Assembly: GCA_016860985.1 (NCBI GenBank)
Contig: BOKM01000001.1
Span: 2,310-66,309 of the forward strand
DNA length: 64,000 nucleotides
DNA from: Patescibacteria group bacterium
GTDB taxonomy: Bacteria > Patescibacteriota > Dojkabacteria > GCA-002793355
Direction of reading: 5' to 3'
Below the pieces are notes generated by a model. That model had not been told where the DNA came from. It saw only the letters and a program-made list of their open reading frames with translations, and made no database searches. Within the stretch, counting starts at the first letter, position 1; every line of letters begins with the position of its first letter. Positions 16,433 to 38,000 of this stretch are shown here, piece by piece. A program made the position numbers and the translations under genes.

Positions 16433-16888
16433 ATGGAAAACATCAGTATCGTTCAAGCAAATCAAGATGATGCCGAATTACTTCTAGAAATCGAGCAAGC
16501 AACCGAATCAATAACATACTCAACGGTTAAGAATATTTCACAGGCGAAATCATATATTAATAGTGCTAAAATTTTATGGCTCTACAAAAACAACGTAGTA
16601 ATAGGCAAGGTATCATACGTTCTTTCGGAAGATAAGACTGTAGAGATCACTGGGCTTATTATCTTGCCTGCTTACAGAAAAAAGGGGTATGGTAAATACC
16701 TTGTTAAGCATGTTATTGCTCTATTTCCCAACGCTAAAATGAAATTAACCGTTCACCCTGAAAATAATTCTGCAATATCTTTATATTACTCACTAGGTTT
16801 TACCTCTCAAGATACACTAACTAACCCATATGGCGATGGAGAGCCACGATTGCTAATGATTAGGAATCCAGCAACACACCAGAAGTAA
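16433..16888 (+). CDS. GNAT family N-acetyltransferase
   Basis: ILPAYRKKGYGKYLVKHVI is the R/Q-x-x-G-x-G/A acetyl-CoA motif. Length 151 aa. Confidence 0.8.
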   Translation: MENISIVQANQDDAELLLEIEQATESITYSTVKNISQAKSYINSAKILWLYKNNVVIGKVSYVLSEDKTVEITGLIILPAYRKKGYGKYLVKHVIALFPNAKMKLTVHPENNSAISLYYSLGFTSQDTLTNPYGDGEPRLLMIRNPATHQK

Positions 16889-18404
16889 CAAGATACTTTT
16901 TTAATGTGTTTGCCTTCTTCAGAATTTTGTTTGCAATTTCAGTATCCAGCCCTCTTTTTGTGTGAATTGGGCCATTTACCGCACAATAACAAATAGTTTC
17001 GATCATTGCAGCCAAAAATGGTTGATAGTCGGAGTGCGTTGCACCTTCTCCATTATATAAATTCAATGATGCTCCATTGCCTAAAATAGTTAATGTTTTC
17101 CCGTTTGAAAGTTTATAAATTCGAGCGAAGTTATCAATGAAATTTAATTCACTTGACTCATCGAATTTGTGGTACGATTGCTTAATCTCATTAGAGGATA
17201 CAGTTGCAATATACGTGTCCCTTTCAATTTTTGACAGATTATCGTACGTTAGTGCATCCAATCCAGTGCATCCAACAACTAAGACAGGCTTAAACTCTTT
17301 TAACAGATAGACCAGATCTTTCGACACGGGGAAACCATCAGATAATGATTCAAAAACTCGGTAGGGTTCAATATCGCAAACATATACCGCCATGCCGTGA
17401 TTCCTCAAATCCTTCGCAATAACTTTGCCTAATGCTCCGTAACCAACAACTACTGCGATTTGGCTCTGTAAACCTATTTGAGGGATGAGTTCATAGATTC
17501 TATTGGTGATGGAGTGACCAATCACGGGGCTCATCAAGTTCTTTATTTCGGAATCGGCTAAGTTTACTACAGTAATGTCCAGATCTTGTCGTGCATTAAT
17601 TGCGTGCATTCCACCTTTTGTTGTTTCTATAAAACCGCTTGTAATATCCCCGTATTTAGCACCGAACAGGTCGATAACCGTTGTAATCATTAACCCTCCG
17701 TCGTCAAAAACGATTACCTTTTTATTCTCTTTTCGGGCTCTCACAAAGTAAGGATTAAGCTCATTAAATACTCTATCTGCTGACTCGGGTAGTATTGTTT
17801 CGTCTTCGGTTTTACCTGTTGGCGACACTGACTCAAATGGGCTCAAGACAAAGACGCCAATACCCAACGCCTTAAATGATTCCTCAATTCGATAAATATT
17901 TTTACATCTGTCACCCTTAGAGTAATAGACTGTGTTTTCAGGTTTAAGTCCAAGTTTAAACAATTCTTTGAAAACATTAAAGACTGATATTAAGCTATGT
18001 TCCCTGAATATTACAATGGCATTGCTTAATACTTGATCGCGGACGTATTCTTCTGAAACCATTTTACTTAGCAAAGGCGTATATTCGTAAAGTTTTTTTT
18101 CCTCTTCAGGAGAAAACACCTTACTCATAGTCTCAACGTAAGTATGGAGTTCCTCTACGCCTTCAGTATCAACAATCACCTCCATTCGTTTCAAGCCAGT
18201 TTGGTAGTACTCAAGAAATCGTTGGGGAGGCAAAAACTGAAATATAACTCTGATGTTATTTTCACAGGAGACGAAGGAAAGTGAGTTTTTATCATCCTTC
18301 TTCGATACTGGTTGTTTTGCAAATGCTTCCATCCACTCCTTTACGGACAAGATGACACGTGCAAAATAATTATCAGATCCGTAAAACTGGTTATGAGTAA
18401 TCAT
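16860..18404 (-). CDS. adenosylhomocysteinase-family protein (divergent, with an extra N-terminal region of about 130 aa)
   Basis: ETTKGGMHAI (compare ETTTGVHRL) and the NAD-binding stretch VVGYGALGKVIAKDLRNHGMAVYVCDIEPYRVFESLSDGFPV (compare GYGDVGKGCA...TEIDPI...EGFxV of SAHH). Confidence 0.5.
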   Translation of the reverse strand: MITHNQFYGSDNYFARVILSVKEWMEAFAKQPVSKKDDKNSLSFVSCENNIRVIFQFLPPQRFLEYYQTGLKRMEVIVDTEGVEELHTYVETMSKVFSPEEEKKLYEYTPLLSKMVSEEYVRDQVLSNAIVIFREHSLISVFNVFKELFKLGLKPENTVYYSKGDRCKNIYRIEESFKALGIGVFVLSPFESVSPTGKTEDETILPESADRVFNELNPYFVRARKENKKVIVFDDGGLMITTVIDLFGAKYGDITSGFIETTKGGMHAINARQDLDITVVNLADSEIKNLMSPVIGHSITNRIYELIPQIGLQSQIAVVVGYGALGKVIAKDLRNHGMAVYVCDIEPYRVFESLSDGFPVSKDLVYLLKEFKPVLVVGCTGLDALTYDNLSKIERDTYIATVSSNEIKQSYHKFDESSELNFIDNFARIYKLSNGKTLTILGNGASLNLYNGEGATHSDYQPFLAAMIETICYCAVNGPIHTKRGLDTEIANKILKKANTLKKYLVTSGVLLDS

Positions 18405-18490
18405 TGGTAAGGATAGAACTAATTAATCGGGAGGTCAAGAGAAAGAATATCTGGAACCTAAAAATTGATACTGAAGACCCTTTGGTTATA

Positions 18491-18577
18491 GATAGGACTG
18501 ACGGGACTTGAAGCAGCCATTACAATAATGCGGAACTGGAAGGTCTGGTACATGGAATGAGACAGTATAAAAAGGAT
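18491..18577 (+). repeat. copy A (short form) of a conserved noncoding element family (GATAGGACTGACGGGACTTGAAG...AATGCGG...GGTCTGG...GAGACAGTATAAAAAGGA)
   Basis: About 80% identity to 24714-24826 and to the split copy at 47538-47600 plus 47830-47866. Same orientation in all three. Confidence 0.6.
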
Positions 18578-21770: not shown

Positions 21771-22421
21771 TTAGGAAATATCACTTTTTTTACGTTCCTC
21801 CAACTGAAGCACTTCTTCTATTTTGACATATTTCACTTTGTTTACATATAAGTAGGCTAGAAGTTCTACAAGCGAATACGTGACAATATTGTCGTACTTA
21901 TTAATTCTATCGATTTGTTTTTCATGAGCGGCAATATTTCCAACAATCCTAATACAGTGGGCCAATTTTTTAATTCTTTGTGGCCATTTTGCTAATCCTA
22001 TCCATTTAGAAAGTGACTTGAATTTTGGTATCTGTACCTTTTGGTCTTTCAGTATTTCTTCAACAATTTTCCGTAACCTAACAGAAAACTGTTCCTGAGA
22101 TCGTTGTTTCAACCTGAATGTTTCAAGGACTAAGTCTCTAACGTGATGCGGAACAGCCTCATCAATTACGATTTCGACTGGATACAGTTGAAACCAGTCG
22201 TCCTTCGTCAGTCTGATCGTTTCGTCTTCAATTGCACCAATATATCCGTCATCTATTGTTTTCAAGATATACCGTGAACATGTTGAACATTTAAGAACAC
22301 AGGTATGCATGTAATTCTCCCAATAGTCATTTGACGATTTCGGAAGAAAAACATCAGTTATATCAACTACAGTACAAAGAGTTCTATTCCCACAGTTGCT
22401 ACAAAACGCTAGTTCTTCCAT
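21771..22421 (-). CDS. DUF4145 domain protein with an N-terminal zinc ribbon
   Basis: C-terminal IRIVGNIAAHEK matches the conserved R-x-x-G-N-x-A-A-H-E motif of DUF4145. N-terminal CSNCGN...C...CSTC. Confidence 0.5.
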   Translation of the reverse strand: MEELAFCSNCGNRTLCTVVDITDVFLPKSSNDYWENYMHTCVLKCSTCSRYILKTIDDGYIGAIEDETIRLTKDDWFQLYPVEIVIDEAVPHHVRDLVLETFRLKQRSQEQFSVRLRKIVEEILKDQKVQIPKFKSLSKWIGLAKWPQRIKKLAHCIRIVGNIAAHEKQIDRINKYDNIVTYSLVELLAYLYVNKVKYVKIEEVLQLEERKKSDIS

Positions 22422-22504
22422 TCTTTATTATACTCTCTGAGTTATTTGTAATAATAATTATCTTGGAACTAGACTTACATCAAGATTCGCGGTACTTGTG
22501 GTGT

Positions 22505-23845
22505 ATGGAAAACACAATAAAAGTACCTGACTTGCGCTACTGCCTCTATGCTCGAAAATCCTCCGAGTCGGACGAAAAGCAGGCGATGAGTATAGACAGC
22601 CAACTTCACGAAATGAGTGATCTAGCAAAGCGAGATAATATAAACATTGTCGATATTATTACAGAAAGCCATTCTGCTAAAGAAACTGGCCAACGACCAC
22701 AGTTTAACCTTATGGTTGAAGGAATTAGTAGTGGAAAGTATAACGGCATCATAACGTGGGCTCCAGATAGAATTTCAAGAAATGCAGGCGACCTTGGACG
22801 GATAGTCGATTTAATGGATCAAGGGAAGCTTTCTCTAATCAAAACACATTCTCAAACCTTTACAAACAACCCTAATGAGAAGTTCCTATTAATGATACTC
22901 TGCTCACAAGCAAAACTGGAAAACGACAATAGGGGAATAAACGTAAAGCGTGGACTAAAGAGTAAATGTCAGACAGGGGTAAGACCAACAATGCCACCTC
23001 TCGGATATATTAATATCATGAGAGCAAATAGAATCTCAACTGTAATACTTGATCCCGAAAAATCCCCAATAATTAAACAAATGTTCGTATATGTCGCGGA
23101 CAAAGGACTTTCAGGAAGAACCATCCGAAAATGGCTAAGAAAAATTGGATTCAAATCAAGAACAGGAAAAGACCTCGTTTTAAGTCTAATCTACAAAATG
23201 CTCAGAAATCCCTTTTATTATGGATATTTTAAATACGGTGAGAAAATATACAAAGGTTCACATGAACCTCTCATATCCAAACAAGTATTTGATAAGGTAC
23301 AAATACAGTTGCAAACAACACCACGACAGTGGAATAAACAGCTCTACCCTTTCAAGAAAATTTGCAAATGTGGAAGTTGTGGTAGTAGTATAACTGCAGA
23401 AACTAAGTTTCGAGTAGTTCAGAATGGGGATGTACATCCTCATATCTATTATCACTGCAATAGAATAAATGACTACGATTGTCATGAACCTTATATAACT
23501 GAAGCTGAACTCATACAGCAACTTGTTGCTCTTATGCCGCAAATCAAACTCGACAAAGAATACATTTGGAACCTATTCCAAGACGAAATCAAACGATTAA
23601 ATCATCTACAACAAATAATGAATCTGAAAAACAGCGTAGCTTTTGAAACAACTCCACATAGGAACATGTCCAAATCCATAAGTGCGATTAGTGAAAGAGA
23701 AACAGAAATGATCAAAGATTACTTCTTACACATTCTGCAGTATGGAACACCGGAAGAAAGGCAGAATGTATTAACAGGAGTTAAGTCAATCTTTATCCTA
23801 AAAGAACGGGAGCTTCGTCTTAAAGGTCAGATTAACGCTTTATGA
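22505..23845 (+). CDS. large serine recombinase (resolvase catalytic domain + recombinase domain + zinc ribbon)
   Basis: N-terminal YCLYARKSSESDEKQAMSIDSQ with the catalytic Ser, central recombinase domain, and CKCGSCGSS...YYHCN zinc ribbon. About 97% aa identity to the copy at 44850-46190. The start is set at MENTIK by comparison with the paralog; the longer ORF from 22331 overlaps the divergent gene. Confidence 0.85.
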   Translation: MENTIKVPDLRYCLYARKSSESDEKQAMSIDSQLHEMSDLAKRDNINIVDIITESHSAKETGQRPQFNLMVEGISSGKYNGIITWAPDRISRNAGDLGRIVDLMDQGKLSLIKTHSQTFTNNPNEKFLLMILCSQAKLENDNRGINVKRGLKSKCQTGVRPTMPPLGYINIMRANRISTVILDPEKSPIIKQMFVYVADKGLSGRTIRKWLRKIGFKSRTGKDLVLSLIYKMLRNPFYYGYFKYGEKIYKGSHEPLISKQVFDKVQIQLQTTPRQWNKQLYPFKKICKCGSCGSSITAETKFRVVQNGDVHPHIYYHCNRINDYDCHEPYITEAELIQQLVALMPQIKLDKEYIWNLFQDEIKRLNHLQQIMNLKNSVAFETTPHRNMSKSISAISERETEMIKDYFLHILQYGTPEERQNVLTGVKSIFILKERELRLKGQINAL

Positions 23846-24605
23846 CAATTTGTTGGAACATATCATCAGTATCATCTTTCCATTGCCCCGACCACGATAG
23901 TTTTAGCTCAATTAGCGAAGGACTAGCATTTTTTGCGTAAACACAAATCTTTAATTTGTAATCACCAGGAGTTAAACAATCCTTTTGGGCAAAAACTATA
24001 TCCTTACTTTCCAAAAAAAACATAGTCTTCTCTTTTTCTTCCGAAGAGTATCCCCTGTACTTTGAGGATGGCTTACACGTAGCAGGATTTGCAATCGAAC
24101 CAATATCAACAAAAAACATATTTCCCGACTGAATTGTCAGTACTCGTATCTCTTGATTATACTTTGCCGACCAGTTAAGAATTATTGGGGTAAAATTCTT
24201 TTCTTCAATAAAATCTCCTGAGCTATCTTTTTTAGAAATGCTTTCTAGGTATGTACTGCAATCTTCAGCTGCAAGCTTTCCTTCATTTTTTACCGCGATT
24301 CTGAAGAAATATACATCGATTCCTAAATCTGTTGTAGTTTTATGACAGAAGGGACTACCAAGTTTGAATAGGATTTTATTTTTTGGGGAGCGAAAAGTGT
24401 ATTTGAAATGTTCCGACATAAGTGGGCCGATAAATGCGACGAGTAGCGCAATAAGGCCAATTGCTATCTGTATGTAATCCGAAACAGATAACATTGATAC
24501 TACTGCAGGAACTAATGTTGGTGTCATCATTAATTGTACATTCTTTCCGACATACATACCAGAATTGTACTGGCATGTACTTTGCGTTCCAAAGCTTAGA
24601 ACCAA
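23832..24605 (-). CDS. hypothetical membrane-anchored protein
   Basis: 257-aa ORF with an N-terminal TM segment (IAIGLIALLVAFIGPLM). Confidence 0.4.
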   Translation of the reverse strand: MVLSFGTQSTCQYNSGMYVGKNVQLMMTPTLVPAVVSMLSVSDYIQIAIGLIALLVAFIGPLMSEHFKYTFRSPKNKILFKLGSPFCHKTTTDLGIDVYFFRIAVKNEGKLAAEDCSTYLESISKKDSSGDFIEEKNFTPIILNWSAKYNQEIRVLTIQSGNMFFVDIGSIANPATCKPSSKYRGYSSEEKEKTMFFLESKDIVFAQKDCLTPGDYKLKICVYAKNASPSLIELKLSWSGQWKDDTDDMFQQIVIKR

Positions 24606-24611
24606 GGAGTA

Positions 24612-24826
24612 TTTATTTTTGCAATTTTTAGATGATTTTGCGTATTACAGGACTACGTTGACACTTTTCCAATTTGGGGTATCCGTAAGTAATGGTAAGT
24701 TGGACATTTCCAGATAGGACTGACGGGACTTGAAGCAACCGTTGCAAAAATGCGGAGCATGTGGGTCTGGCACCGTACAATGGCTGGTTGGTAGAAAAAA
24801 TGAGACAAAAGAGACAGTATAAAAAG
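24612..24826 (+). repeat. copy B (long form, about 215 nt) of the conserved noncoding element, ending in an RBS-like AAAGGA just before the ATG of the next operon
   Basis: 24612-24720 matches 47432-47545 (AAGGAGTATT..TTTTAG....CGTATTACAGGACTACGTT.ACAC.TTTCC...GATAGGACTGACGGGACTTGAAG). The core also matches 18491-18577. Confidence 0.6.
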
Positions 24827-24830: not shown

Positions 24831-25937
24831 ATGATTTGTCTCAATCTAGAAAAATTGCTTATCACTTATCCACACAATCTGATGAATTTCTGTTATAATC
24901 CACAGCAATATGTAACAATACTATTGCACATGATTCAACCTACAAAGTCTTGGAATAATCCAAATCAACATTATAAGGATGCGCTGACTACTCCTTGGTA
25001 TAAAGTCTTGACTGGCCTACAAAGCGATTTCGTTAATGCGACAGTTTCATTTTATAAAGAAATTGGTTATGATTTTACCCTTCTTCCGATAACTACAGGT
25101 GCTATTTCTAGCCCTATGGGGTTAGGAAGTGACTCGTCACCGGTTCAAGTGAATATTGGAGGTGTCGAGACATATCTTGCCGATTCAATGCAATTCATGC
25201 TTGAGTATGCATGCAGAGTTAGAAAAAATGGATGCTATTATTTGGCACCATCGTTTAGAGGAGAACTTGCAGATGCAAGACACTTATGCCAATTTTATCA
25301 TTCAGAAGCAGAAATAGAAGGTACGATTACGGATGTAATGTCACTTGTAGAGAGATACGTAAAGTACCTTGCACAGTGGTATAAAGATCATAGCAAAAAT
25401 GAACTATTAACTGTAACTGATAATATTTCACATCTGGATACACTTATCAATATTGAAAAGATCCCAACAGTCACTTTCGCTGAAGCAGTCGATATCCTTG
25501 AAAACAATAGCGAATACATTCAAAATCATGGTATTTACCGAACAATTAACCATGCAGGCGAAAAGAAATTAATTGAGAAATATGGCGGATTTGTCTGGTT
25601 AACCCATTTTGATCATCTTGCAGTTCCATTCTATCAGAAGAATACTGATGACACATTTACGACTGCAATTAACGCAGATCTGCTTATGGGAATCGGAGAA
25701 ACAGTTGGCTCTGGTGAGCGACACTTCTCAAGAAGAGAAACAGAGAAAGCACTTGATTTTCATAAGGTGAGTAGAGATCATTACGAATGGTATTTAACAA
25801 TGAAGGAACTTGTACCAATGCAAACATCAGGCTTCGGACTTGGAGTTGAAAGATTCTTGTTATGGTTAACTAATCAAAATGATATTAGAGATATGCAATT
25901 AGTACCAAGATTTAATGGAGAAAAGGAGATACTATGA
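24831..25937 (+). CDS. class II aminoacyl-tRNA-synthetase-like catalytic core without an anticodon-binding domain (AsnRS/AsnA-like amino-acid ligase)
   Basis: Motif 2-like YYLAPSFRGELADARHLCQFYHSEAEIE and motif 3-like SGFGLGVERFLLWLT. No N-terminal OB fold, as in archaeal-type asparagine synthetase A paralogs. Confidence 0.55.
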   Translation: MICLNLEKLLITYPHNLMNFCYNPQQYVTILLHMIQPTKSWNNPNQHYKDALTTPWYKVLTGLQSDFVNATVSFYKEIGYDFTLLPITTGAISSPMGLGSDSSPVQVNIGGVETYLADSMQFMLEYACRVRKNGCYYLAPSFRGELADARHLCQFYHSEAEIEGTITDVMSLVERYVKYLAQWYKDHSKNELLTVTDNISHLDTLINIEKIPTVTFAEAVDILENNSEYIQNHGIYRTINHAGEKKLIEKYGGFVWLTHFDHLAVPFYQKNTDDTFTTAINADLLMGIGETVGSGERHFSRRETEKALDFHKVSRDHYEWYLTMKELVPMQTSGFGLGVERFLLWLTNQNDIRDMQLVPRFNGEKEIL

Positions 25938-26770
25938 AAAAATATACAGTAGAAGAAATAACAAAAATTAATTACACAGATTTTATCTCTTTGATTAAGG
26001 AAACGAATCGTTGCCCTGGAGGTAAAGACACAATTCGAAAGATAGTGCAGAATACTTTCATCGACGAAAACAGTAGGGTTCTCGATGTTGGTTCAAATAC
26101 AGGATTCACGTCTTTAGAACTTTCCCACATTTCAAAAGCAAAAATTTCGGGAATTGATGTTTCAGAAGCATGCGTAAATACTGCTAATGCACTGCTGGCA
26201 ACAGATATCGAAGAAGTGAGAAAAAGAGTCGATTTCCAAGTTGGTAGTGCATACGAGATTCCTTTCGAAAATGATACATTCGATCTTGTTGTAACTGGTG
26301 GTGCGACGTCATTTATGGATAAGAAACAACAGGCAATTTCAGAGTATAAACGAGTACTAAAACCATGGGGGTTTTTGAGTGCAACTCAATTATTCTATAC
26401 AACAAAACCACCCCAAGCTGTGGTTGATGCAGTTTCGAATGCAATTGGCGTCACGATAAATCCATGGTTGGAACAAGACTGGAAAAATGTATTCTTAGAA
26501 ACCCAAGAAAGTGGAGTACTTGAGCTGTATTATTATGAAAAGAACGAACTACAATCAAGGCCAGCTGACGTTATTGAAGAATACATGGAATACTTTATGG
26601 CGAAAGATCACCTAAAAGAATATTCTGAGGATGTTCGTAATGCGATTAGGAAAAAGTGGAAAATGTACATTGATGTATTCAATGAAAATCACAAGTATCT
26701 TGGTTACTTTATTTCATTATTCAGAAAAACTCAGTATCCAGAGGAGCCTGAATTATTTATAAGAAAATGA
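25934..26770 (+). CDS. class I SAM-dependent methyltransferase
   Basis: VLDVGSNTGFTSLEL (motif I) and DLVVTGGA (motif II region). Start overlaps the upstream gene by 4 nt. Confidence 0.7.
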   Translation: MKKYTVEEITKINYTDFISLIKETNRCPGGKDTIRKIVQNTFIDENSRVLDVGSNTGFTSLELSHISKAKISGIDVSEACVNTANALLATDIEEVRKRVDFQVGSAYEIPFENDTFDLVVTGGATSFMDKKQQAISEYKRVLKPWGFLSATQLFYTTKPPQAVVDAVSNAIGVTINPWLEQDWKNVFLETQESGVLELYYYEKNELQSRPADVIEEYMEYFMAKDHLKEYSEDVRNAIRKKWKMYIDVFNENHKYLGYFISLFRKTQYPEEPELFIRK

Positions 26771-26774
26771 TTCA

Positions 26775-27839
26775 GTGAAAGACCGTAACCAAAAATCCAA
26801 AAAAGGACAGAGTAAATCGGGAAAGCCCTTAGAGAAAGCAGACACATTGTTTATAGATAAACATGAAAGGGATACATTTTTACCGTTGCTGAGATATCTG
26901 TATGGGATCGAATTCCAAGACAAAATAGAGTTTGTGTCGTCATTATCTCTTACCTCACGAAAGTGTTTAATTTTCGATAATGAAGGGGTTAAGTATTTTC
27001 TTAAGCGTAAACCAGAGTATTCATTACAAGAACCATTGAGAACAAGAGCTATAAGGCTTCAGTCTCTACTTGCGACAAAAGTTCCCTTTATTCCCCAAAT
27101 CATATTTACAAAGACAGATAATCAACCACTGGGTGTTATTAATAGTAGTCATTATCTGCTTACTAAATATGTAGATGGTCAAATATTTGGAGGTCGGATT
27201 GAACAGTCAATTACGGGTGCATCAAAACTAGGGTTGATGCATAAAATTGCGAATCAAAATCTTGCAGAGGAGTCTTCGCCTGTTGACTCAAATGAGTCAG
27301 TTAAAACATTTATCGGTTACGCCGAGAAAATGAGTTTTTCTGATGCAAAATTGCAGAATGAAGTACTTGATAAAATAAGAAAGAAAGTACAGACATTAAA
27401 ATCCGAGAATAAGGGAAAAATGAGTTGGATTCACTCGGATTTCGCTCCATTTAATCTTGTATTTTCCGGTGACGAGGTCGTTGCCGTTAATGATTTTGAC
27501 AATGCAACGTTTGGTAACATATCTAAAGATGTTGCAGAATGCATTATTTCATTTGCAGATATTAACTATAATGGGGCGACGTCGTTTCTTAACAAGGTGA
27601 TCAGAACCTCAATTGATGAACGCTCTATGGCTAGATTGCTTGAGGCATATATGAATACATCTGAAAGTTCAATTAGTGATTTAACAGATTTACCAAATGA
27701 AATGAGTTTAATGTGGTTAAAATTGATGGTCCTAGGATTGCTTAGAGGTGATTTCGCATTAGAGGATGTTAATGTGGTACTGAATCACGCAGATGATCTT
27801 AATGTGGTAGGAAATGAATTACTACACTCTCTAAAATAG
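26775..27839 (+). CDS. aminoglycoside-phosphotransferase-fold (APH/choline-kinase-like) kinase
   Basis: WIHSDFAPFNLVF...VNDFDNATFGN corresponds to the HxDxxxxN catalytic loop plus the DFD/DFG metal-binding motif of the APH fold. GTG start 5 nt after the upstream stop. Confidence 0.55.
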   Translation: MKDRNQKSKKGQSKSGKPLEKADTLFIDKHERDTFLPLLRYLYGIEFQDKIEFVSSLSLTSRKCLIFDNEGVKYFLKRKPEYSLQEPLRTRAIRLQSLLATKVPFIPQIIFTKTDNQPLGVINSSHYLLTKYVDGQIFGGRIEQSITGASKLGLMHKIANQNLAEESSPVDSNESVKTFIGYAEKMSFSDAKLQNEVLDKIRKKVQTLKSENKGKMSWIHSDFAPFNLVFSGDEVVAVNDFDNATFGNISKDVAECIISFADINYNGATSFLNKVIRTSIDERSMARLLEAYMNTSESSISDLTDLPNEMSLMWLKLMVLGLLRGDFALEDVNVVLNHADDLNVVGNELLHSLK

Positions 27840-27840
27840 T

Positions 27841-28836
27841 ATGCGAGAACTTATCTATCCAACGAAGATGAGAGCAGGTCAAAAGCTAGGTGTTTTTGCA
27901 TCTTCAAGTCCCGCCTTATCATTCCCAAATGCAAATGATTCATACAAGTATATTAATGCAAAAGGCGTAAACGTTTTTGAGCACAAACAATGCAGAATAA
28001 AGAACAGACACACTGCAGGAACGGTGGTTGACAGAGTATCGGCAATTAATGACTTACTGCTCGATAATTCAATTGGTATTCTCATGGCTTATTGGGGAGG
28101 TACAAATACCAATGATTTATTAAAGTATCTTGATTATGAGTTATTTGCTAGATATCCCAAAATAATTATTGGATATTCTGATACAACGGCATTACTTCAG
28201 GCAATAACATCAAAGACAGGATTAGTCACTTTTATGGGGCCAGCCGCAATTACGTTTATTAAACCTGAACCCTTTGAGTATTCTTGGAGTTACTTTTATA
28301 AAATGTGTATTGCACCTGAGGATGAGGTTGTTATTGAAGATTCGCCAGTTTTTGCAGATGACGAATACTTTCTTCGAGAAGATAGTAATCACCGAATAAT
28401 TCGACCAAATTCTGGTCGCCAAGTTTTTAAAGATGGAAATTTCAAAGGGGCGTGCATTGCTAGCAATCTCGAGACTTTATTGGCGTTAGCCGGTACTGAA
28501 TATTTTCCAAATCTCGAAGGGAAAGCCCTTTTTATTGAGGAAAGTGAAGAAGAAAATCTATCAACGGTAAATAGAAATTTTAGGCAATTATCGCAGGTCG
28601 ATGGCTTCGATAAGTTGAGTGCTTTGTTGATAGGAAGGTTTTGCGAAAAGAGTGGATTTTCTGATCAAGATTCTGTCGAAATGATGTTAGAAGATACTCT
28701 AGTAAACACAAACTTTCCTGTTATCTATAATCTTGATTTCGGCCATTCTGATCCATTATTCACTATTCCCAATGGTGGTAGCGTTATTATTGATACAAAA
28801 CAGAAAGTTTTACAATTTTCAAAAGCTGTCGTCTAA
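27841..28836 (+). CDS. S66 peptidase (LD-carboxypeptidase LdcA / microcin-C immunity MccF-like)
   Basis: IIGYSDTTALLQAI (catalytic Ser in G-Y-S-D-x-T-A-L) and C-terminal DFGHSD (His). Start is 2 nt after the kinase stop. Confidence 0.7.
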   Translation: MRELIYPTKMRAGQKLGVFASSSPALSFPNANDSYKYINAKGVNVFEHKQCRIKNRHTAGTVVDRVSAINDLLLDNSIGILMAYWGGTNTNDLLKYLDYELFARYPKIIIGYSDTTALLQAITSKTGLVTFMGPAAITFIKPEPFEYSWSYFYKMCIAPEDEVVIEDSPVFADDEYFLREDSNHRIIRPNSGRQVFKDGNFKGACIASNLETLLALAGTEYFPNLEGKALFIEESEEENLSTVNRNFRQLSQVDGFDKLSALLIGRFCEKSGFSDQDSVEMMLEDTLVNTNFPVIYNLDFGHSDPLFTIPNGGSVIIDTKQKVLQFSKAVV

Positions 28837-29828
28837 TAACGATTGTCGACTGGTGTTGCCTCATAAAGATACCAATCTGCGTCAAACTGGTCTGATATCA
28901 ATAAGTCTCCTCTTTCATTCAAAAGATGTACGTTTGAATGTTCTCCATCTACTAATAACCAATGTCCATTAAAGTGTAAACTGTCCTGTAACCAAACAGT
29001 CTTGATTGAGACTTTATTTTCAAGAATAAATTTACCAGACGCAATCTTCCCGTAATATGCTTCACCCCTCGCAGTATCAGAAAAACTTATTCTTTTATCT
29101 GCATATACTCTAACTGAATGTGGCCTTTTAAGATCGCTCATTATTGGAGTAATTTCACCTGTCGTTTTGTTGATAGTATTAAGCGTTCCTTGCATGAATA
29201 AAGTTACTAATATGGTATTGTCGTCGTATTCTGCGGCTGCATTCGGATGTGCTGTATGTAACCACGTATCATATTCTACATACCTGTGATCAATATCCTT
29301 GCTCAAGGTACGATTAATTCCGAAGGCATCAGTCATGAAACCGTGATCCATGGCCCACCATTGCCAAAGTACCTCTTTCCCATTCTCTGATAGTTCAAAT
29401 ATAGCATCAACCCCAGCAGAAGTAAGTAAAAATCCTTTTTTAGTTTTGCGCATAGAGTGTAAAGCATTAAAGGATTTTAGAGATGACAGTTCAGTGCTTT
29501 TAGTAAGATCAAGAGAATGAATTCCAATTGAGTGATGTGATGCGCTCAAAATGCCATTATCGGTAACCATAATTCCATGTAGGAAATCCGATTGCGCAGT
29601 CGCTACAATGGTACCTTCCTTGTTAATCTTTGCTATTAATCCTGCATATGGATTGTCAATTTCTGGTATATTCCACTCTTTTATGCTTGGACGAACTCGT
29701 TCTTGGTTCTTTTCTCTGGCCCAACGTTCCTTTCTTTTTCCAAGATCTCGATATGTAACGGACAAAAAATATTCAGGCATACTAGAAGAACTGTCATATA
29801 CAGTACGAACGAGAGGGAATTTACTCAT
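28833..29828 (-). CDS. hypothetical protein (possible beta-propeller), downstream of the NUDIX gene
   Basis: 331-aa ORF, 2-nt spacing from the upstream NUDIX gene and 4-nt overlap with the convergent peptidase gene. Confidence 0.4.
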   Translation of the reverse strand: MSKFPLVRTVYDSSSSMPEYFLSVTYRDLGKRKERWAREKNQERVRPSIKEWNIPEIDNPYAGLIAKINKEGTIVATAQSDFLHGIMVTDNGILSASHHSIGIHSLDLTKSTELSSLKSFNALHSMRKTKKGFLLTSAGVDAIFELSENGKEVLWQWWAMDHGFMTDAFGINRTLSKDIDHRYVEYDTWLHTAHPNAAAEYDDNTILVTLFMQGTLNTINKTTGEITPIMSDLKRPHSVRVYADKRISFSDTARGEAYYGKIASGKFILENKVSIKTVWLQDSLHFNGHWLLVDGEHSNVHLLNERGDLLISDQFDADWYLYEATPVDNRY

Positions 29829-29829
29829 T

Positions 29830-30276
29830 TTACTTTGTAATCTTTAATCTGATTGCTTCAGCTTTTTCCATACTTGCGAGAATCCAAGGTGGAGTATTTG
29901 GATTTGATTTGATTTCTTCAAATGTCATCCAAGATACTTCATCAACTTCATCCTCTATCATTGCCGATGGATCACCTGATTTGTATTCTGCAATAAAGAC
30001 AATATCAATGACATGGTTGCCTTTAGCACTTACAAACATCTTGCTTTCTACATATTCGAGCTTTTCTTGAACTTGTACGTTAACTTCTTCCAAGATTTCT
30101 CGTTTTACACCAAATTCTAGTGTATCAGTAAGTGCGTCTGAATAATCAACTTTTCCGCCAACCATAGAAAGAGTACCACCTGCATGATCTTCTTTTTTTG
30201 ATCGTAAAATCATGAGCCATTTATTATTTTGAAAAATAGCTGCTTCAACATTTACTATAAATTTTGGAGGTTCCAT
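29830..30276 (-). CDS. NUDIX hydrolase
   Basis: Nudix box GGKVDYSDALTDTLEFGVKREILEEVNV (GX5EX7REUXEEXGU). Confidence 0.8.
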   Translation of the reverse strand: MEPPKFIVNVEAAIFQNNKWLMILRSKKEDHAGGTLSMVGGKVDYSDALTDTLEFGVKREILEEVNVQVQEKLEYVESKMFVSAKGNHVIDIVFIAEYKSGDPSAMIEDEVDEVSWMTFEEIKSNPNTPPWILASMEKAEAIRLKITK

Positions 30277-30349: not shown

Positions 30350-30673
30350 ATGATATATTCAAAAGAAGATCAAGAATTGATCCAAAAAGCAATTAGTTTC
30401 TTAGTTGAGAACTTCAATAAATCAGGTAACAACAATAAGCCTGTTATCCTTCATAGCATTCGGCTTGCGATGCGCCTTTACGACAAAGGGAAAAAGGCAT
30501 CAGTAGTTGTTGGAGCTCTTCTGCACGATTTGTTGGAAGATACACAGGTTACATTGTCTAACATTACGTCGAAATTCGGTATTGTACATAGTTCTTTTAA
30601 CGCTTGTAGCTCATTTTCCACTCGTTTTACAAAAACCTCTATCTCCATATATTCATTATACAGTGATTTATAA
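30350..30673 (+). pseudogene. truncated HD-domain (RelA/SpoT-type hydrolase-like) gene fragment
   Basis: HSIRLAMRL...ALLHDLLEDT are HD-domain metal ligands, but the ORF ends after 107 aa in low-complexity sequence where the family normally continues. Probable remnant. Confidence 0.4.
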
Positions 30674-33327: not shown

Positions 33328-34656
33328 ATGGACAATTCACTAACCATCGTCAATGTTTTAATTGACGACTTAATTAGTGCCGACTACAATCCTCGCAAGT
33401 GGGATCAGAAGGCTTTAAACGACCTAAGAGCGAGCATTAAGAAGTTCGGTCTGGTTGACCCTGCTCTAGTAAATGGTGCAACCAATCGCAAAAACATTGT
33501 CATTGGTGGCCACATGCGTATTGCAGCAGCAAAATCACTAGGTATTACCGAAATGCCTGTTGTTTATCTAAACATTCCTGATTTAGAGAAGGAAAAGGAG
33601 CTTAATCTTAGACTGAATAAAAATCAGGGAGAGTTTGATTTCAAACTACTTGCACACTTTGCAGAAGATTTTCTTACTGACATTGGTTTCAATTCAGAAG
33701 AGATGGACTCCATCTTTGATTGGGAAGACGATACACCTGAAGTATTCGATCTTCAAAAGGAACTTGAGAAACTCAACATCAGTAAAATTGAGATAGAAAA
33801 GGGAGATGTCTGGCAACTTGGAGAGAATCGATTAATGTGTGGTGACTCCACAATTCAAGAAGATATTCAAAAGCTACTTAATAACGAGAAAGCTGACATG
33901 GTTATGACTGACCCACCGTATATTCTTGATTACTTGCATGGGAAAACTAAGCACGGTAAAGCGACAGAAGGATTCGGTTATAAACGAGACAGAAAGTATT
34001 TAGAAACAGATTCCATACCTGAAAACTTCACAGAACTGTGGATGAAGAATATCTCAGAAGTAGCCAAAGAGAACTTTCATATAATTGTCTATGAAAATTG
34101 GAAAAACATTAGGACTATTTGGGCAGAGATGGAAAAGTACTGGAAAGTTAAGAATATGATTGTCTGGCATCTACCTAACCGCAACCAAAGTTTTGCAGCA
34201 AAGTACAAATTCTTTTCTAAACATGATATTGCTATGGTTGGCTCTTCTTATACCGAAGAGGCCTTTAATCTTGAAATGGAGGAGAAACTCCTACAAAACG
34301 AGTATGAGACTGCACTCTATGCAATATCAGGTAAACCACATTGGGAAGGCTACGAAAAAGGTAAGAAGATTCAGCCAACTGACTTTCTTGAATACAATGC
34401 TTCAGACGAGAAACATTCGGGTCAAGGAATTGTCTTTGGTACAAAACCTATTGAGATCCTAATTCCATATATCAAAGTACTTACTAAGCGTGAAGATTTA
34501 GTAGTAGAACCATTTGGTGGAAGTGGATCTACACTTATTGCGTGTCAAAAACTAAAAAGGAGATGTTTTATCATGGAAAAATCGCCAGTATATGCTGAGG
34601 TCATTCGCAACCGATGGGAGAAACTCACTAAACTTAAAGCTACGAAGATAGTGTGA
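33328..34656 (+). CDS. ParB-like nuclease domain fused to an N6/N4 DNA methyltransferase (phage-type orphan methylase)
   Basis: N-terminal ParB/Srx motif (LVDPALVNG...IVIGGHMRIAAAK), central MTDPPY, and C-terminal EPFGGSGST (motif I). About 78% aa identity to 56133-57479. Confidence 0.85.
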   Translation: MDNSLTIVNVLIDDLISADYNPRKWDQKALNDLRASIKKFGLVDPALVNGATNRKNIVIGGHMRIAAAKSLGITEMPVVYLNIPDLEKEKELNLRLNKNQGEFDFKLLAHFAEDFLTDIGFNSEEMDSIFDWEDDTPEVFDLQKELEKLNISKIEIEKGDVWQLGENRLMCGDSTIQEDIQKLLNNEKADMVMTDPPYILDYLHGKTKHGKATEGFGYKRDRKYLETDSIPENFTELWMKNISEVAKENFHIIVYENWKNIRTIWAEMEKYWKVKNMIVWHLPNRNQSFAAKYKFFSKHDIAMVGSSYTEEAFNLEMEEKLLQNEYETALYAISGKPHWEGYEKGKKIQPTDFLEYNASDEKHSGQGIVFGTKPIEILIPYIKVLTKREDLVVEPFGGSGSTLIACQKLKRRCFIMEKSPVYAEVIRNRWEKLTKLKATKIV

Positions 34657-35036
34657 AAATTTCTTTAAAGAAACAGGTTCTTGAACAACTTAAGAAGACT
34701 CCGATAATTCAAGTAACCTGCGAAAAACTAGGAATAGCACGTGCTACCTTCTATCGATGGAAACAACGTGACCAGAAGTTCTCAACTTCGGTAGACAAGG
34801 CTTTACTTGAAGGCTCACTGCTGATTAACGATATGGCTGAGAGTCAACTCATTACGCAAATCAAGAATGCTAACATGACTGCAATTATCTTCTGGCTTAA
34901 GTACCACCATAGAGGATATACAAAAGAAGTTCTGGCTACTCTACCAAATCAGCCGACAAAAATTAAGGTGGAGATTATAAGAAGTAAATCTGATCTTGAG
35001 AATTCGGATAAGAAGGAAGTTCGTAAAGTAAGTTGA
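34653..35036 (+). CDS. terminase small subunit-like HTH protein
   Basis: GIARATFYRWKQRD (HTH) and AIIFWLKYHH. Paralog of 57476-57874. GTG start overlapping the upstream stop (GTGA). Confidence 0.5.
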   Translation: MKISLKKQVLEQLKKTPIIQVTCEKLGIARATFYRWKQRDQKFSTSVDKALLEGSLLINDMAESQLITQIKNANMTAIIFWLKYHHRGYTKEVLATLPNQPTKIKVEIIRSKSDLENSDKKEVRKVS

Positions 35037-35078
35037 TCTGCTAGATTTCTTGACGCGAAAAGAATAAAATTACATCAC

Positions 35079-38000
35079 ATGAGTGCTATCGAAAAATATA
35101 TTGAAGAAGTAATAAAGACTTATAAGACTGGGCATGCACGCGAGCATGCATATAGACCTGCGCTAGAGACTCTTATTGAAGAGATAAATCCCAATATAAA
35201 TGCAGTAAACGACCCTAAACAGCAAAAGGTGGGTGCCCCTGATTTCGTATTGCTTAAGGGGAAAACACCAATTGGTTACATTGAAGCAAAAGACATTGAT
35301 GTAAATCTGGAGAGCGAATTCAAAACAAAGAATCAATTTAATCGATATAAGTCTTCACTCAACAATATTTGTTTTACTAATTGTCTGGATTTTCATTTCT
35401 ATGTAAATGGAGAAGCAATCTCGAGAGTCAGTGTTGGAAAACTGGAAGCTGGAAAAATATCAATACTCACTGAAAACCTTCCTTTACTTGAAAGCTTGCT
35501 TGTCAATTTTACGACACTGAAGTCAATCTCAATTCGTAGTCCAAAAGAACTAGCATTCTTAATGGCTGAGAAGGCTAAAATGCTCAAAAATGTAGTCTAC
35601 TTATCGCTAAAAGAGGGATCTGAAGTGAAGGGACAGGTAGAACAACAATATGAAGTTTTTAAACAGATGTTAATCCACGACCTTTCATTGGAGCAATATG
35701 CTGATATATATGCCCAAACAGTCGCATATGGGATGTTTGCTGCGCGCTTCCATGATAAATCTCTTGATACATTTACAAGAGATGAGGCAAATAACTTATT
35801 GCCAAAATCAAATCCTTTTCTGAGAAATTTCTTTCAAACGATTGCTGGATACAATATCGATGAGCGTATTGTATGGATAGTTGATGATCTTGCAGAACTT
35901 TTCAATCACGTAAATGTCCGCGAATTGCTTGAAAATTTTGGAAAGGATACGAAAAGGAGCGATGTAATTGTCCATTTTTATGAAACTTTTCTTTCCGAAT
36001 ATGATGCAAAGATGCGCAAAGCCAGAGGTGTCTATTACACACCAGAGCCAGTCGTTGATTTCATTGTGAGAGCCGTTGATGATATTTTAAAAACTGAGTT
36101 TGGCATAACTGATGGCCTTGCTGATACAAGTAAAATTGACGTTGAAAAGGAAGTTCAGGGATTAAAGAAAAAGCAGAAGGTAAAGGAACATCGTGTCCAA
36201 GTACTTGACCCCGCAACTGGAACAGGTACATTTTTAGATCACGTTATCAAACATATCTACAACACAAAATTTAAAGGACAACAAGGTATTTGGCAAGGTT
36301 ATGTTGATGAGCACCTACTACCTAGGCTACATGGATTTGAAATTCTCATGGCAAGTTATTCAATGGCACATCTTAAACTTGATATTACTCTTGCAGAGAC
36401 TGGCTATGATTCATCTAAAGGGCAAGGGAAGCGTTTAGGTGTATACCTCACAAACTCACTCGAAGAGCCCGAAGCACATCAAAAAGACCTGTTTTCTCAA
36501 TGGCTAACGACTGAAAGTATGGAAGCAAACGAGGTGAAGAAGGAAAAGCCAATTATGGTGGTTATGGGAAATCCGCCTTATAGCGGTGAGAGTTCAAACA
36601 AAGGCAAATGGATTATGGATTTAATGGAAGACTACAAATTTGAACCAGGAGGCCAAGAAAAGTTAAACGAACGAAATCCCAAGTGGATCAATGATGATTA
36701 TGTGAAGTTTATTAGATTTGCGCAACATTATATCGAAAAAAATGGCGAGGGAATACTTGCATTTATTAATCCTCATGGCTTTTTAGATAATCCTACGTTC
36801 AGGGGAATGCGATGGAAGTTGTTATCTGTTTTCGACAAGATATATACTATTGATCTACACGGGAATACAAAAAAGAAGGAACTTACGCCCGATGGATCCA
36901 AGGACGAGAATGTGTTTGACATAATGCAAGGAGTAAGCATAAATCTTTTTGTAAAAAAGCGAGATTCAAGAAATAAGTTGGCAAATGTTTATTCTAAGGA
37001 TCTTTACGGTAAAAGAAATATAAAATATGATTTTCTGTCTACTAATAGAATTGGGGATATAAAATGGAACAAACTAGATCCCCATAATGACATGTATTTC
37101 TTTGTTCAGAAAGACTTTGAATTACTTAACGAATACGAACAAGGTATTAAGGTTAACGAGTTATTTCCAGTAAATAACGTTGGCATCGTTACTTCAAAAG
37201 ATGCGATTTTAGTTTCCGAAGATGAGGAGAAGTTACTCAAGAATGTACAAGAACATTATCAGATTAATACTGATAAAAACAAAGTTAAGAGAATTTCTTA
37301 TAGACCTTTTGATGATAGATTTGTCTATTATGATACAAAATTGATAGAGAGAGCAAGATACGAAGTAATGCAGCACTTAATAAAAGGTGCGAATTACGGA
37401 ATAATAATTCCAAGACAAGCAATTACAGACAACTATTCACACGTAAATATAACTCGGTATATGACTGACAATCGGTATCAATACAGCAATAAAGGAGTAA
37501 CAACAGAAGTTCCTCTCTATTTATACAAAGACTCCACACTACTTACAGCGACAAGAGAACCAAATCTTAGCAGAACGCTAATTACAGATATTGCCACAAA
37601 ACTAAAGCTCCAGTTTATGAACGACCATGAGCATGCAGATTCAGGAAAAGCAGGCACATTCAATCCATTAGATATTCTCGATTACATTTACGCAATCTTA
37701 CACTCACCATCATACCGAGAACGCTATAAAGAATTTCTTAAAATTGATTTTCCACGAATCCCGTTTACATCAGATCAAAAGTTATTCTGGTCTTTAGTAG
37801 AAAAAGGGAGAGAAATTCGACGATATCACTTAATGGAGCATACAAACAGCAGTTCATTAATAACACAGTACCCTGTTTCTGGTGAAAATGAAGTTATCAA
37901 CCCTAGATACTCCGATAATAAAGTTTGGATAAATGATACGCAGTATTTTGATGATGTACCTCAAATTGCATGGGGATTTTACATTGGTGGATACCAACCA

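Follow-up and report, generated by a model that had tools for sequence, protein, structure and literature searches.

The 64,000-nucleotide stretch of DNA analyzed here, which we refer to as the window (positions 2,310 to 66,309 of contig BOKM01000001.1), belongs to a Dojkabacteria-like genome of the Candidate Phyla Radiation (CPR), and six genes found between 24.9 and 30.3 kb appear to form a cassette that is carried as cargo of a serine-recombinase island. We consider it probable, at roughly 60%, that this cassette is a peptide-independent system of the agrocin and microcin C type that makes a phosphoramidate nucleotide of asparagine or aspartate (Asx). The genes are present with their catalytic residues intact, they fall into the protein families named below, they are homologous to genes of the agrocin 84 (agn) and microcin C (mcc) clusters, and their linkage is kept across phyla.

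The cassette consists of a four-gene operon on the forward strand and two convergent genes on the reverse strand. The operon encodes a 368-residue ligase with an AgnA-type class II core (24831-25937), a 278-residue S-adenosylmethionine (SAM)-dependent transferase of the MccD/AgnB1 family, termed the methyltransferase below (25934-26770), a 354-residue APH-fold kinase of a rare family that begins at a GTG codon (26775-27839), and a 331-residue S66 serine carboxypeptidase of the MccF/AgnC5 type (27841-28836). The ligase and methyltransferase genes overlap by 4 nt, a gap of 4 nt separates the methyltransferase from the kinase, and a gap of 1 nt separates the kinase from the S66 gene. Convergent to the operon lie a 331-residue, six-bladed beta-propeller (28833-29828, reverse strand) and a NUDIX hydrolase (29830-30276, reverse strand; Pfam NUDIX, E = 1.2e-13). 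An initial annotation of this DNA had described the four forward genes as a unit with overlapping or abutting ends. Its coordinates and junctions are correct, and a Pfam profile search confirmed its four domain assignments by matches to tRNA-synt_2, Methyltransf_11/25, APH, and Peptidase_S66. The limits of the unit do need to be redrawn, as the functional unit comprises six genes and includes the convergent propeller and NUDIX genes. The gene arrangement is far beyond chance because all four operon genes and both convergent ones recur together at 94% and at 81% ligase identity, and because the links of the ligase to the S66 gene and to the methyltransferase survive shuffled gene orders across phyla. 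The spacing of the four operon genes and their conserved synteny also suggest that they are co-transcribed.

Sequence comparisons place the ligase close to asparaginyl-tRNA synthetase (AsnRS). Its only Pfam match is tRNA-synt_2 (E = 3.7e-32, residues 58-360), and, as had been recognized in the initial annotation, it is a class II core that retains motifs 2 and 3 and lacks an anticodon-binding domain. The class IIb core with these two motifs is shared with AsnRS and with archaeal AS-AR, and the latter likewise has no anticodon-binding domain. The top NCBIfam models are those for asparagine synthetase A (AsnA), yet the scores stay below both cut-offs (265.9 versus 322 bits and 254.5 versus 389 bits). 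In a PDB sequence search, the nearest solved sequences are those of AsnRS (E = 3e-21 across the core); the alignment with archaeal AsnA structures is confined to ≈120 residues (E = 1e-11), and E. coli-type AsnA structures give no match at all. The gene therefore does not encode a conventional AsnA, an identity that the initial annotation had considered. It also differs from AsnA in being patchily distributed on mobile DNA and embedded in toxin-type clusters. By these comparisons, the ligase derives from AsnRS and is predicted to be unable to charge tRNA. It is a full-length homolog of AgnA of plasmid pAgK84, with 38.6% identity over residues 1-331 (E = 9e-76 in a translated search of the plasmid; E = 7e-88 by BLASTP). 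The homologs, which are 334 to 340 residues long, align from Met34 (nt 24930), and in the relative with 94% identity, no more than 19 codons of the upstream frame are open; we therefore place the start at nt 24930, where the conserved part of the protein begins. The ATG at 24831 has a better Shine-Dalgarno-like sequence than this M34 start.

An alignment of 90 distinct ligases (34 to 100% identity), which includes AgnA and every cluster type, has 65 columns that are at least 97% conserved. Among them are those of motif 2 (R110, E112) and motif 3 (R308) and, as judged by alignment to AsnRS and aspartyl-tRNA synthetase (AspRS), the residues lining the amino-acid pocket. The FRGE sequence of motif 2 and the GFGLGVER sequence of motif 3 are invariant in the family. 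The pocket, which we take to be AsnRS-like, keeps E126 and R264 and has a leucine in place of the AspRS lysine. Because these columns, the pocket included, are conserved across the 90 ligases, the ligase probably catalyzes the same reaction in every cluster type. The enzyme also occurs fused to an MccD-type domain, to GNAT, to HIT, to a carrier-protein domain, and to Asparaginase_2, a family of Asn/beta-aspartyl amidohydrolases. In proteins of 700 to 1570 residues (P0153, P0154, P0158, P0163, P0190, and P0170), the ligase forms the C-terminal part of a chain with Asparaginase_2, HIT, and carnitine-acyltransferase-like domains. A chytrid fungus protein (KAJ3415921.1) is among these fusions, and among those to Asparaginase_2, which suggests that the family reaches eukaryotes as a multi-enzyme.

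The second gene of the operon encodes a homolog of transferases encoded in both known clusters. The protein has the class I methyltransferase fold and matches Pfam Methyltransf_11/25 (E ≈ 3e-16), and its best relative in the PDB is MccD (5FCD; E = 6e-24 over residues 4-265), whereas generic methyltransferases match only its Rossmann core (E = 1e-12 or weaker). It is 32% identical to AgnB1 (E = 2e-53), and a translated search returns the gene directly downstream of agnA (E = 6e-44). Identity to E. coli MccD is 30.5% (E = 4e-28; tblastn E = 3e-21), and the matched operon is an authentic mcc operon, with ThiF-like MccB, the MFS protein MccC, MccD, MccE, and a convergent S66 gene for MccF. Pairwise BLAST confirmed the relations of the ligase, methyltransferase, and S66 proteins to their agn and mcc counterparts. 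A fusion of such a methyltransferase to the ligase exists as well. MccD takes the 3-amino-3-carboxypropyl group from SAM and attaches it to the peptidyl-nucleotide at its phosphate, and MccE1 then decarboxylates the transferred group (PMC8323819). We propose that the methyltransferase of the cassette alkylates the phosphate of a phosphoramidate with either a methyl or a 3-amino-3-carboxypropyl group. No decarboxylase is encoded in the window; sibling clusters have one.

The S66 protein contains both the N- and the C-domain of Peptidase_S66 (Pfam, E ≈ 1e-25 each). Its best PDB matches are all MccF-like and extend over the full length, namely BA_5613 (E = 5.5e-48) and Lmo1638 and the MccF proteins of B. 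anthracis and E. coli (E = 1e-46 to 1e-42), whereas LdcA structures match the C-domain only (E = 2e-13) and the NCBIfam LdcA model scores 92 bits against a cut-off of 378. Identity is 30.7% to MccF and 29.8% to AgnC5 (E = 1e-48 to 1e-40 overall). The assignment to the MccF type made in the initial annotation is thus borne out over the whole protein, and the gene does not look like a housekeeping LdcA, as it is syntenic with the ligase across phyla. In all 52 of the 52 cluster-linked S66 proteins, the Ser-Glu-His triad is invariant and the extra loop of MccF is present. At the adenine-stacking position, where MccF has Trp186, most cluster-linked S66 proteins have a Trp, and the subgroup of the window has Tyr-Phe. 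We set aside the MccF residues N220 and K247, putative determinants of its acidic side-chain preference, as markers of substrate, as they are unreliable: the columns are variable. MccF cleaves aspartate or a peptide off processed or mature microcin C, and stand-alone MccF homologs give resistance (PMC8323819). We propose that the S66 enzyme of the cassette would hydrolyze the Asx-N(P) amide of the ligase product, and such a reaction could serve either immunity or the biosynthetic release of a nucleoside phosphoramidate. By analogy, immunity is favored by the parallel with MccF, GNAT, and HIT and by loci that have only the ligase, a GNAT, and an exporter.

To gauge how general this gene set is, we rely on a census of the best 80 of 465 ligase loci, drawn from one genome per species (GTDB representatives, 185,579 genomes) and spanning CPR lineages, Clostridia, Bacilli, Streptomyces, other actinomycetes, Providencia, Rahnella, Vibrio, and others; among 1.84 billion proteins, the ligase family accounts for ≈135 representative clusters. 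An S66 gene lies within ≈8.5 kb of the ligase in 50 of the 80 loci (35 of the 54 with full flanks), and in 47 of these 50 it is on the ligase strand (binomial p = 4e-11), with a median gap of 2.1 kb. A methyltransferase of the MccD/AgnB1 type is found in 32 of the 80 loci, always on the strand of the ligase and at a median gap of 31 nt. The composition around this core varies. At 73% and 64% ligase identity, in Dojkabacteria and their relatives, a protein of ≈400 residues that resembles the core of alanyl-tRNA synthetase (AlaRS) replaces the kinase, and the ligase, methyltransferase, and S66 genes stay in place; at 61% identity, the order is S66, an unknown gene, and the ligase.

S66, GNAT, and HIT, three types of enzyme that are unrelated to one another and each act on processed microcin C, converge on the ligase. 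In several loci, an MccE2-type GNAT gene neighbors the S66 gene or the ligase, and other proteins have a GNAT domain fused to the ligase. HIT genes lie beside the ligase, for instance immediately downstream of it in a second Dojkabacteria genome, and HIT also occurs fused to it. As immunity enzymes against microcin C, S66 proteins cleave the Asp-N bond, GNAT acetylates the alpha-amine, and HIT belongs to a family that cleaves P-N bonds (PMC8323819). Because these three families and the two enzymes that decorate the phosphate of microcin C recur around the ligase, its product is expected to resemble processed microcin C. The simplest inference from this analogy is that the product would be Asx joined through nitrogen to a nucleoside 5'-phosphate.

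Other accessory genes in the 80 loci include an AlaRS-like gene (15 loci), an ATP-grasp gene (12), and a second leucyl-tRNA synthetase (LeuRS; 12), along with homologs of AgnC1 to AgnC7, a tRNA-synt_2b-type protein, radical SAM enzymes, decarboxylases that are either MccE1-like and dependent on pyridoxal phosphate (PLP) or of the AdoMet type, MFS exporters, and a PNP_UDP_1 nucleoside phosphorylase. A candidate for a second acyl-transfer enzyme is present in 43 of the 80 loci. In Xenorhabdus, Providencia, and Rahnella, the order is MFS, ligase, methyltransferase, S66, nucleoside phosphorylase, VOC, leuS, and a protein related to aminoacyl-tRNA synthetases (aaRSs); this version looks like an mcc-like operon in which MccA and MccB were swapped for the ligase and to which agrocin-style LeuRS immunity was added. 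The clusters with an extra LeuRS occur in a Xenorhabdus bovienii megaplasmid (L095), in Providencia burhodogranariea (L064), in Rahnella (L073), and in gut Clostridia (L029, L038, L060, L068, and L090). The extra LeuRS of Xenorhabdus is 41.6% identical to AgnB2, and these clusters also hold the methyltransferase, the S66 gene, and genes like AgnC2, AgnC3, and AgnC4. At the other extreme of complexity, six records from Pantoea agglomerans plasmids (L100) have a version reduced to two genes, a 427-residue ligase with a partial N-terminal GNAT and, after it, an MFS transporter; a metallophosphoesterase is encoded on the other strand. This version may represent the simplest producer of the ligase product.

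The kinase, NUDIX, and propeller genes belong to the cassette; what each does can be suggested from family and fold. The kinase matches Pfam APH (E = 6e-12; 46.3 bits versus a cut-off of 23.2), and its invariant residues K77, H220-x-D222-x4-N227, and D240-F-D242 correspond to the catalytic lysine, the HxDxxxxN loop, and the DFD metal site. The family is rare: a word-indexed protein search returned seven relatives, and the PDB sequence search returned none. In an AlphaFold2 (AF2) model with a predicted local distance difference test score (pLDDT) of 84, the nearest folds are homoserine kinase II, NahK, AmiN, APH(9), and Mph, so that the modeled kinase resembles small-molecule hydroxyl kinases, several of which modify antibiotics. 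We propose that it phosphorylates a hydroxyl of the product, for tailoring or for reversible self-inactivation. The genomic context of its relatives points back to the ligase. One kinase with 46% identity is part of a cluster that runs ligase, AdoMet decarboxylase, S66, methyltransferase, APH, HD, and a Robertmurraya locus has the order ligase, ATP-grasp, methyltransferase, APH, ParA-like, PLP decarboxylase, NUDIX. With the kinase family as bait, metagenomes yielded 22 loci that contain the ligase in 12 cases, the methyltransferase in 14, the S66 gene in 12, and NUDIX in six; 17 of the 22 lie in ligase/methyltransferase/S66/NUDIX clusters, and the remaining five are contigs of at most 4.5 kb. 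More distant relatives of the kinase (40% identity) and of the propeller (36%) stand in unrelated neighborhoods, and we discarded them as uninformative for context. In two of these loci (L096 and L097, both metagenomic), the 40% kinase relatives are found beside a DegT-type aminotransferase, GFO_IDH_MocA, Ldh_2, and a methyltransferase-domain protein of 830 to 850 residues, a gene set reminiscent of a pathway for a sugar or cyclitol and a hint at sugar-like hydroxyls as substrates of the kinase family.

The propeller is confidently modeled as six-bladed (pLDDT 92). Among enzymes, the folds nearest to it, which also give the longest alignments, are those of arylsulfate sulfotransferases (ASSTs), including Cpz4 from a nucleoside-antibiotic pathway. 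This is a lead rather than an assignment, and it makes the propeller a candidate enzyme for group transfer or tailoring in the APH-type clusters. A 43% identical propeller homolog ends a same-strand cluster (L106) of methyltransferase, PLP decarboxylase, ligase, JmjC, APH, ParA-like, and NUDIX genes, and the NUDIX protein of that cluster matches the one in the window with 164 bits. Elsewhere, NUDIX homologs lie between the methyltransferase and the ligase (L117, L120-L123, and L128). We propose that the NUDIX protein is a pyrophosphohydrolase of nucleotide derivatives that serves in processing or detoxification.

One of the known systems closest to the cassette is that of agrocin 84, encoded on pAgK84 of Rhizobium rhizogenes K84. 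The two share homologs of AgnA, AgnB1, and AgnC5 (described as "MccF-like") as well as NUDIX genes; on pAgK84, agnA is annotated as "Agrocin84-synthetase", two NUDIX genes flank agn, and the cluster is mobile, being plasmid-borne with a resolvase adjacent. They differ in that pAgK84 also carries agnB2, an agrocin-resistant LeuRS, whereas the 64 kb of the window contain no homolog of LeuRS or of another aaRS. AgnC1 to AgnC4, AgnC6, and AgnC7, which serve in making the Leu-like acyl group, have no hits in or near the cassette, apart from a weak AgnC2-like SDR protein 16 kb away (7626-8318). The cassette is also without agrocin's genes for the sugar-phosphate uptake moiety and without its exporter, and it adds the APH kinase and the ASST-like propeller, both of which pAgK84 lacks. 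At ≈5.5 kb and six genes, it is much smaller than the 17-gene agn cluster, and its host is a CPR bacterium instead of a rhizobium. Agrocin 84 is a nucleotide whose N-acyl phosphoramidate imitates an aminoacyl-adenylate (PMC8323819). Its pathway is described as unresolved in a 2021 review by Travin, Severinov, and Dubiley, in which AgnA is put forward as the enzyme that may join the acyl moiety to AMP by a phosphoramide bond (PMC8323819).

With the microcin C operon of E. coli, the cassette shares the MccD-type transferase and the MccF-type S66 enzyme, and sibling clusters add genes for MccE1-type decarboxylases, MccE2-type GNAT, HIT of the MccH-type family, and MFS exporters. What it does not share is the peptide route: the window contains no homolog of MccB and no MccA-like peptide, and an AsnRS paralog is found instead of the ThiF-like MccB. 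A short open reading frame (ORF) ending in Asn upstream of the ligase is absent from the window and from five relatives. Because the AsnRS paralog replaces the MccA/MccB route, the compound would be made without the ribosome and without an uptake peptide. A third parallel is with ascamycin and its truncated, AlaRS-like transferase AcmF, given that siblings at 73% ligase identity (L007 and L013) hold the AlaRS-core-like protein in the slot of the kinase. The window itself has no AlaRS-like gene, the sibling proteins are likened to AcmF by type and not by sequence, and ascamycin is a sulfamate instead of a phosphoramidate. AcmF can acylate a nucleoside-bound -NH2 group to give a mimic of an aminoacyl-adenylate (PMC12945691).

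In light of these parallels, the claim in the initial annotation that this is not a described system is too strong: the agn cluster has counterparts of three of the four operon genes, the mcc operon has counterparts of two (PMC8323819), and the kind of system is known from agrocin 84 and microcin C. Within the searchable literature, what is new is the breadth of the AgnA-centered family and its modular accessory repertoire, the peptide-free and aaRS-free subtype with APH, NUDIX, and propeller genes, and its presence on a CPR recombinase island. Agrocin-like clusters had earlier been recognized only in one Ensifer strain and some actinobacteria (PMC8323819). We found no later description of AgnA-type clusters in the searchable literature, and work in subscription journals may exist.

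In the mechanism that we favor, the ligase would use ATP and free Asn or Asp to form an Asx-nucleotide, an N-acyl phosphoramidate with an amide nitrogen linking the amino acid to the 5'-phosphate, and the MccD/AgnB1-type SAM enzyme would then alkylate the phosphate. The S66 enzyme would hydrolyze the Asx-N bond, which could either protect the producer or release a nucleoside phosphoramidate, and the APH kinase, the NUDIX hydrolase, and the ASST-like propeller may add or remove phosphate-type groups to tailor the compound or to keep it inactive in its producer. The sites of alkylation and phosphorylation, the toxicity, and the target, for which AspRS or AsnRS are obvious candidates, are all predicted. 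The window contains no precursor peptide, no MccB, and no resistant aaRS. The idea of a toxin pathway with S66 self-immunity, put forward in the initial annotation, is well supported in its first part by the homology to agn and mcc; self-immunity is one of two live roles for the S66 enzyme.

Several observations weigh against this interpretation. Asn or Asp as the substrate and formation of the P-N bond are what we infer for the ligase, and none of its family has been characterized biochemically in the searchable literature. Scans for promoters and terminators gave the counts expected from shuffled sequence and speak neither for nor against a single transcript of the operon. As the window has neither an exporter nor a resistant aaRS nor an uptake (Trojan-horse) module, a toxin would lack an evident route out of the producer and into a target. 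The columns that correspond to N220 and K247 of MccF are not conserved among the cluster-linked S66 proteins. The fusions of the ligase to hydrolases (Asparaginase_2 and HIT) are hard to reconcile with pure immunity, and agrocin 84 has no Asp or Asn, yet AgnA shares the invariant pocket, which fits a generic step such as nitrogen donation better. Such a step is central to an alternative that we regard as possible, if rather doubtful, in which the ligase adenylylates the amide nitrogen of Asn and the S66 enzyme removes Asp as an obligatory step, leaving a nucleoside 5'-phosphoramidate (H2N-P). In the window, this H2N-P compound would then be O-alkylated, phosphorylated, and passed on or trimmed by the ASST-like propeller and the NUDIX protein; in sibling clusters, N-acylation by the AcmF-like AlaRS core, AgnC1, the tRNA-synt_2b protein, or ATP-grasp would turn it into warheads against different aaRSs. 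This would account for a ligase pocket that is invariant whatever the target, including in AgnA, whose product is without Asx, and for an S66 gene that is the commonest partner and lies on the same strand in operons, even beside a resistant LeuRS. It would also give a place to the candidate second acyl-transfer enzymes of 43 loci, for which AcmF sets a precedent (PMC12945691), to the fusions with Asparaginase_2 and with HIT, a nucleoside phosphoramidase family, and to a propeller whose nearest enzymatic folds move a sulfuryl group that is isosteric with a phosphoramidate. An obligatory hydrolase is, however, difficult to square with the census: because 30 of the 80 loci have no S66 gene and minimal loci of ligase (with or without GNAT) and MFS exist, the ligase product seems to be usable without it. 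The GNAT and HIT partners are most simply read as immunity of the microcin C type, and the window lacks a second acylating enzyme. In the capsule O-methyl-phosphoramidate pathway of Campylobacter jejuni, the amide nitrogen of Gln is phosphorylated, the product is nucleotidylated, glutamate is hydrolyzed off by an amidohydrolase so that P-NH2 stays on a nucleotide, and a kinase and SAM methyltransferases follow. That pathway is analogous to nitrogen donation from Asn, but it uses unrelated enzyme families, Gln, and CTP and leads to a glycan decoration.

The same chemistry could instead serve to shut down translation in the cell itself or in its host during phage infection. Although such abortive infection would explain both the missing exporter and the position among defense genes, we consider it unlikely. 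The island is packed with restriction-modification, helicase-nuclease, OLD-family nuclease, and DUF4145/DUF6994-6997 genes, the gene after NUDIX in the 94% relatives is AbiJ/Abi_C, and the window is without an exporter homolog. A PADLOC 2.0 scan of ten proteins, however, gave only generic matches for the methyltransferase (mad2) and NUDIX (PDC-S07) and none for the ligase, kinase, S66 enzyme, or propeller; viral contigs hold no close homolog of the ligase and only distant aaRS genes of giant viruses; the 81% relative lies outside a defense context; and the wider family is found in antibiotic-cluster contexts, with exporters and resistant aaRSs, on plasmids of Agrobacterium, Xenorhabdus, Bacillus, and Pantoea. 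It is very unlikely that the genes synthesize nothing and merely detoxify incoming compounds like microcin C or agrocin through S66 cleavage, the kinase, methylation, and NUDIX. Stand-alone MccF homologs do confer resistance to microcin C (PMC8323819), and the kinase fold includes the antibiotic-inactivating AmiN, APH(9), and Mph, but the ligase keeps its ATP-dependent adenylation site intact, for which detoxification offers no obvious use, and MccD-type enzymes are biosynthetic. We give almost no credence to chance adjacency in a compact genome of an archaeal-type AsnA, a murein LD-carboxypeptidase, and an unrelated methyltransferase and kinase. Public annotations do name homologs of the ligase "asparagine synthetase A", in line with its best NCBIfam models, and CPR genomes are so gene-dense that short gaps alone are weak evidence. 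Nevertheless, the ligase falls below the AsnA cut-offs (266 versus 322 and 254 versus 389 bits) and the S66 protein far below that of LdcA, the ligase is patchy, with 465 loci among the 185,579 species genomes, often on plasmids or islands, its linkage to S66 and to the MccD-type methyltransferase is kept across phyla, and the cassette resides in a mobile island. We rejected the reading as housekeeping AsnA and LdcA on the curated cut-offs, the patchy distribution, and the conserved linkage.

The genetic setting of the cassette agrees with the mobile island noted in the initial annotation, as serine recombinases, paralogous cargo, and flanks rich in restriction-modification and nuclease genes are all present. 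The window has a GC content of ≈36 to 38%, which, with the names given to the closest homologs, underlies its placement in the CPR and near Dojkabacteria. A large serine recombinase (22331-23845, forward strand; Pfam Resolvase, Recombinase, and Zn_ribbon_recom) starts the cassette island and is not a member of the pathway; it has a paralog at 44850-46190. Two paralogous serine-recombinase islands (22331-45112 and 44813-64000) are found ≈22.8 kb apart, and paired repeats between them include the recombinases (22468-22767 versus 44813-45112, 90% DNA identity) and genes for a ParB_N and N6_N4 methyltransferase protein (33349 versus 56172, 75%). The arrangement of recombinase and cassette is kept in the 94% relative (L002) and is absent from two other loci (L004 and L007). 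Directly upstream of the operon, there is indeed a conserved element, as first reported, and its copies recur elsewhere in the window. This non-coding element consists of blocks at 24579-24670 and 24712-24773, just 5' of the ligase, with further copies at 47402-47595 and, in part, at 18490-18551; the copies are 80 to 84% identical and have the invariant core GATAGGACTGACGGGACTTGAAG...AATGCGG...GTCTGG. A public contig of the same sequence ends exactly at the element. Rfam gave no match for the whole window, nor for the element in a permissive search, and alignment folding of its three copies produced a weak hairpin with no covariation. The element could be regulatory or could serve a recombinase as an att site.

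Between the recombinase and the cassette, on the reverse strand, lies a gene for a 257-residue protein (23832-24605) whose only match is a weak one to the PADLOC "2TM effector" (E = 0.0027); the 94% relative also has a gene at this position (320 residues). Downstream of the NUDIX gene, an ORF of 107 residues (30350-30673, forward strand) matches only the N-terminal part of the RelA/SpoT HD domain (TIGR00691, E = 4e-9; HD_4, weak) and resembles a gene like that of a small alarmone hydrolase, shortened by truncation or a frameshift. In related clusters (L098, L107, L108, and L118), the kinase is followed by HD-domain genes, and no similarity between them and this ORF was detected. The third copy of the element, ≈6.5 kb upstream of the cassette, adjoins a 514-residue protein (16860-18404, reverse strand) with the NAD-binding domain (E = 8e-12) of the hydrolase for S-adenosyl-L-homocysteine (SAH), whose link to the cassette is speculative. 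SAH hydrolase is needed for the production of agrocin 84 (PMC8323819), and an ahcY gene lies near the ligase on a Bacillus pseudomycoides plasmid. The islands are flanked by DNA methyltransferases, restriction-modification genes, an OLD-family nuclease, a helicase-nuclease, and a terminase-like gene. The segments 33328-44719 and 53960-59312 are dense in defense and mobile content, including the ParB_N-N6_N4 methyltransferase, DUF2779, and DUF6994, a Type ISP restriction-modification enzyme (35079-38147), a helicase of 1472 residues whose nuclease domain is of the MTES_1575 type (40301-44719), an AAA_15/TOPRIM nuclease of the OLD family (53960-55960), and a gene like that of the terminase large subunit (57861-59312), the last of which suggests a phage-derived element.

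AgnA-type clusters are thus spread far more widely than the Ensifer and actinobacterial examples of the 2021 review (PMC8323819), reaching 465 species genomes that include gut Clostridia, Providencia, Xenorhabdus, Rahnella, Bacillus, Streptomyces, and CPR bacteria. Their interchangeable accessory genes predict different aaRS targets and, with them, unexplored translation inhibitors and resistance enzymes; the clusters with an extra LeuRS predict undescribed LeuRS inhibitors like agrocin 84 in enterobacteria and gut anaerobes. Agrocin 84 is a commercial biocontrol antibiotic, and the origin of its phosphoramidate bond has been open since the cluster was sequenced (PMC8323819). AgnA is the prime suspect for making this bond, albeit within a cluster of 17 genes. 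Because the cassette and its relatives pare this down to four to six small genes and a ligase whose active site is invariant, the enzymology of the P-N bond becomes directly testable in vitro. For the host, natural-product-type weaponry on a mobile island in a genome of ≈1 Mb, likely that of an episymbiont, is of interest for the way in which CPR bacteria deal with hosts, competitors, or phages. A bolder proposal, which we offer tentatively as one that may well prove wrong, is that the AsnRS paralog is a novel enzyme for forming P-N bonds that acts on free asparagine or aspartate and, together with an Asp-releasing amidohydrolase (S66, or Asparaginase_2 in the eukaryotic fusions), makes nucleoside phosphoramidates independently of the ribosome, and that the CPR version may act as a contact-dependent weapon or an abortive-infection device. 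If so, a nucleoside phosphoramidate machine would be widespread and would supply the shared warhead scaffold of agrocin 84, of compounds like microcin C, and of further aaRS inhibitors. It would span gut Clostridia, enterobacteria, actinomycetes, and CPR bacteria, and its minimal version, with APH, NUDIX, and propeller genes, would ride a defense island in an episymbiont.

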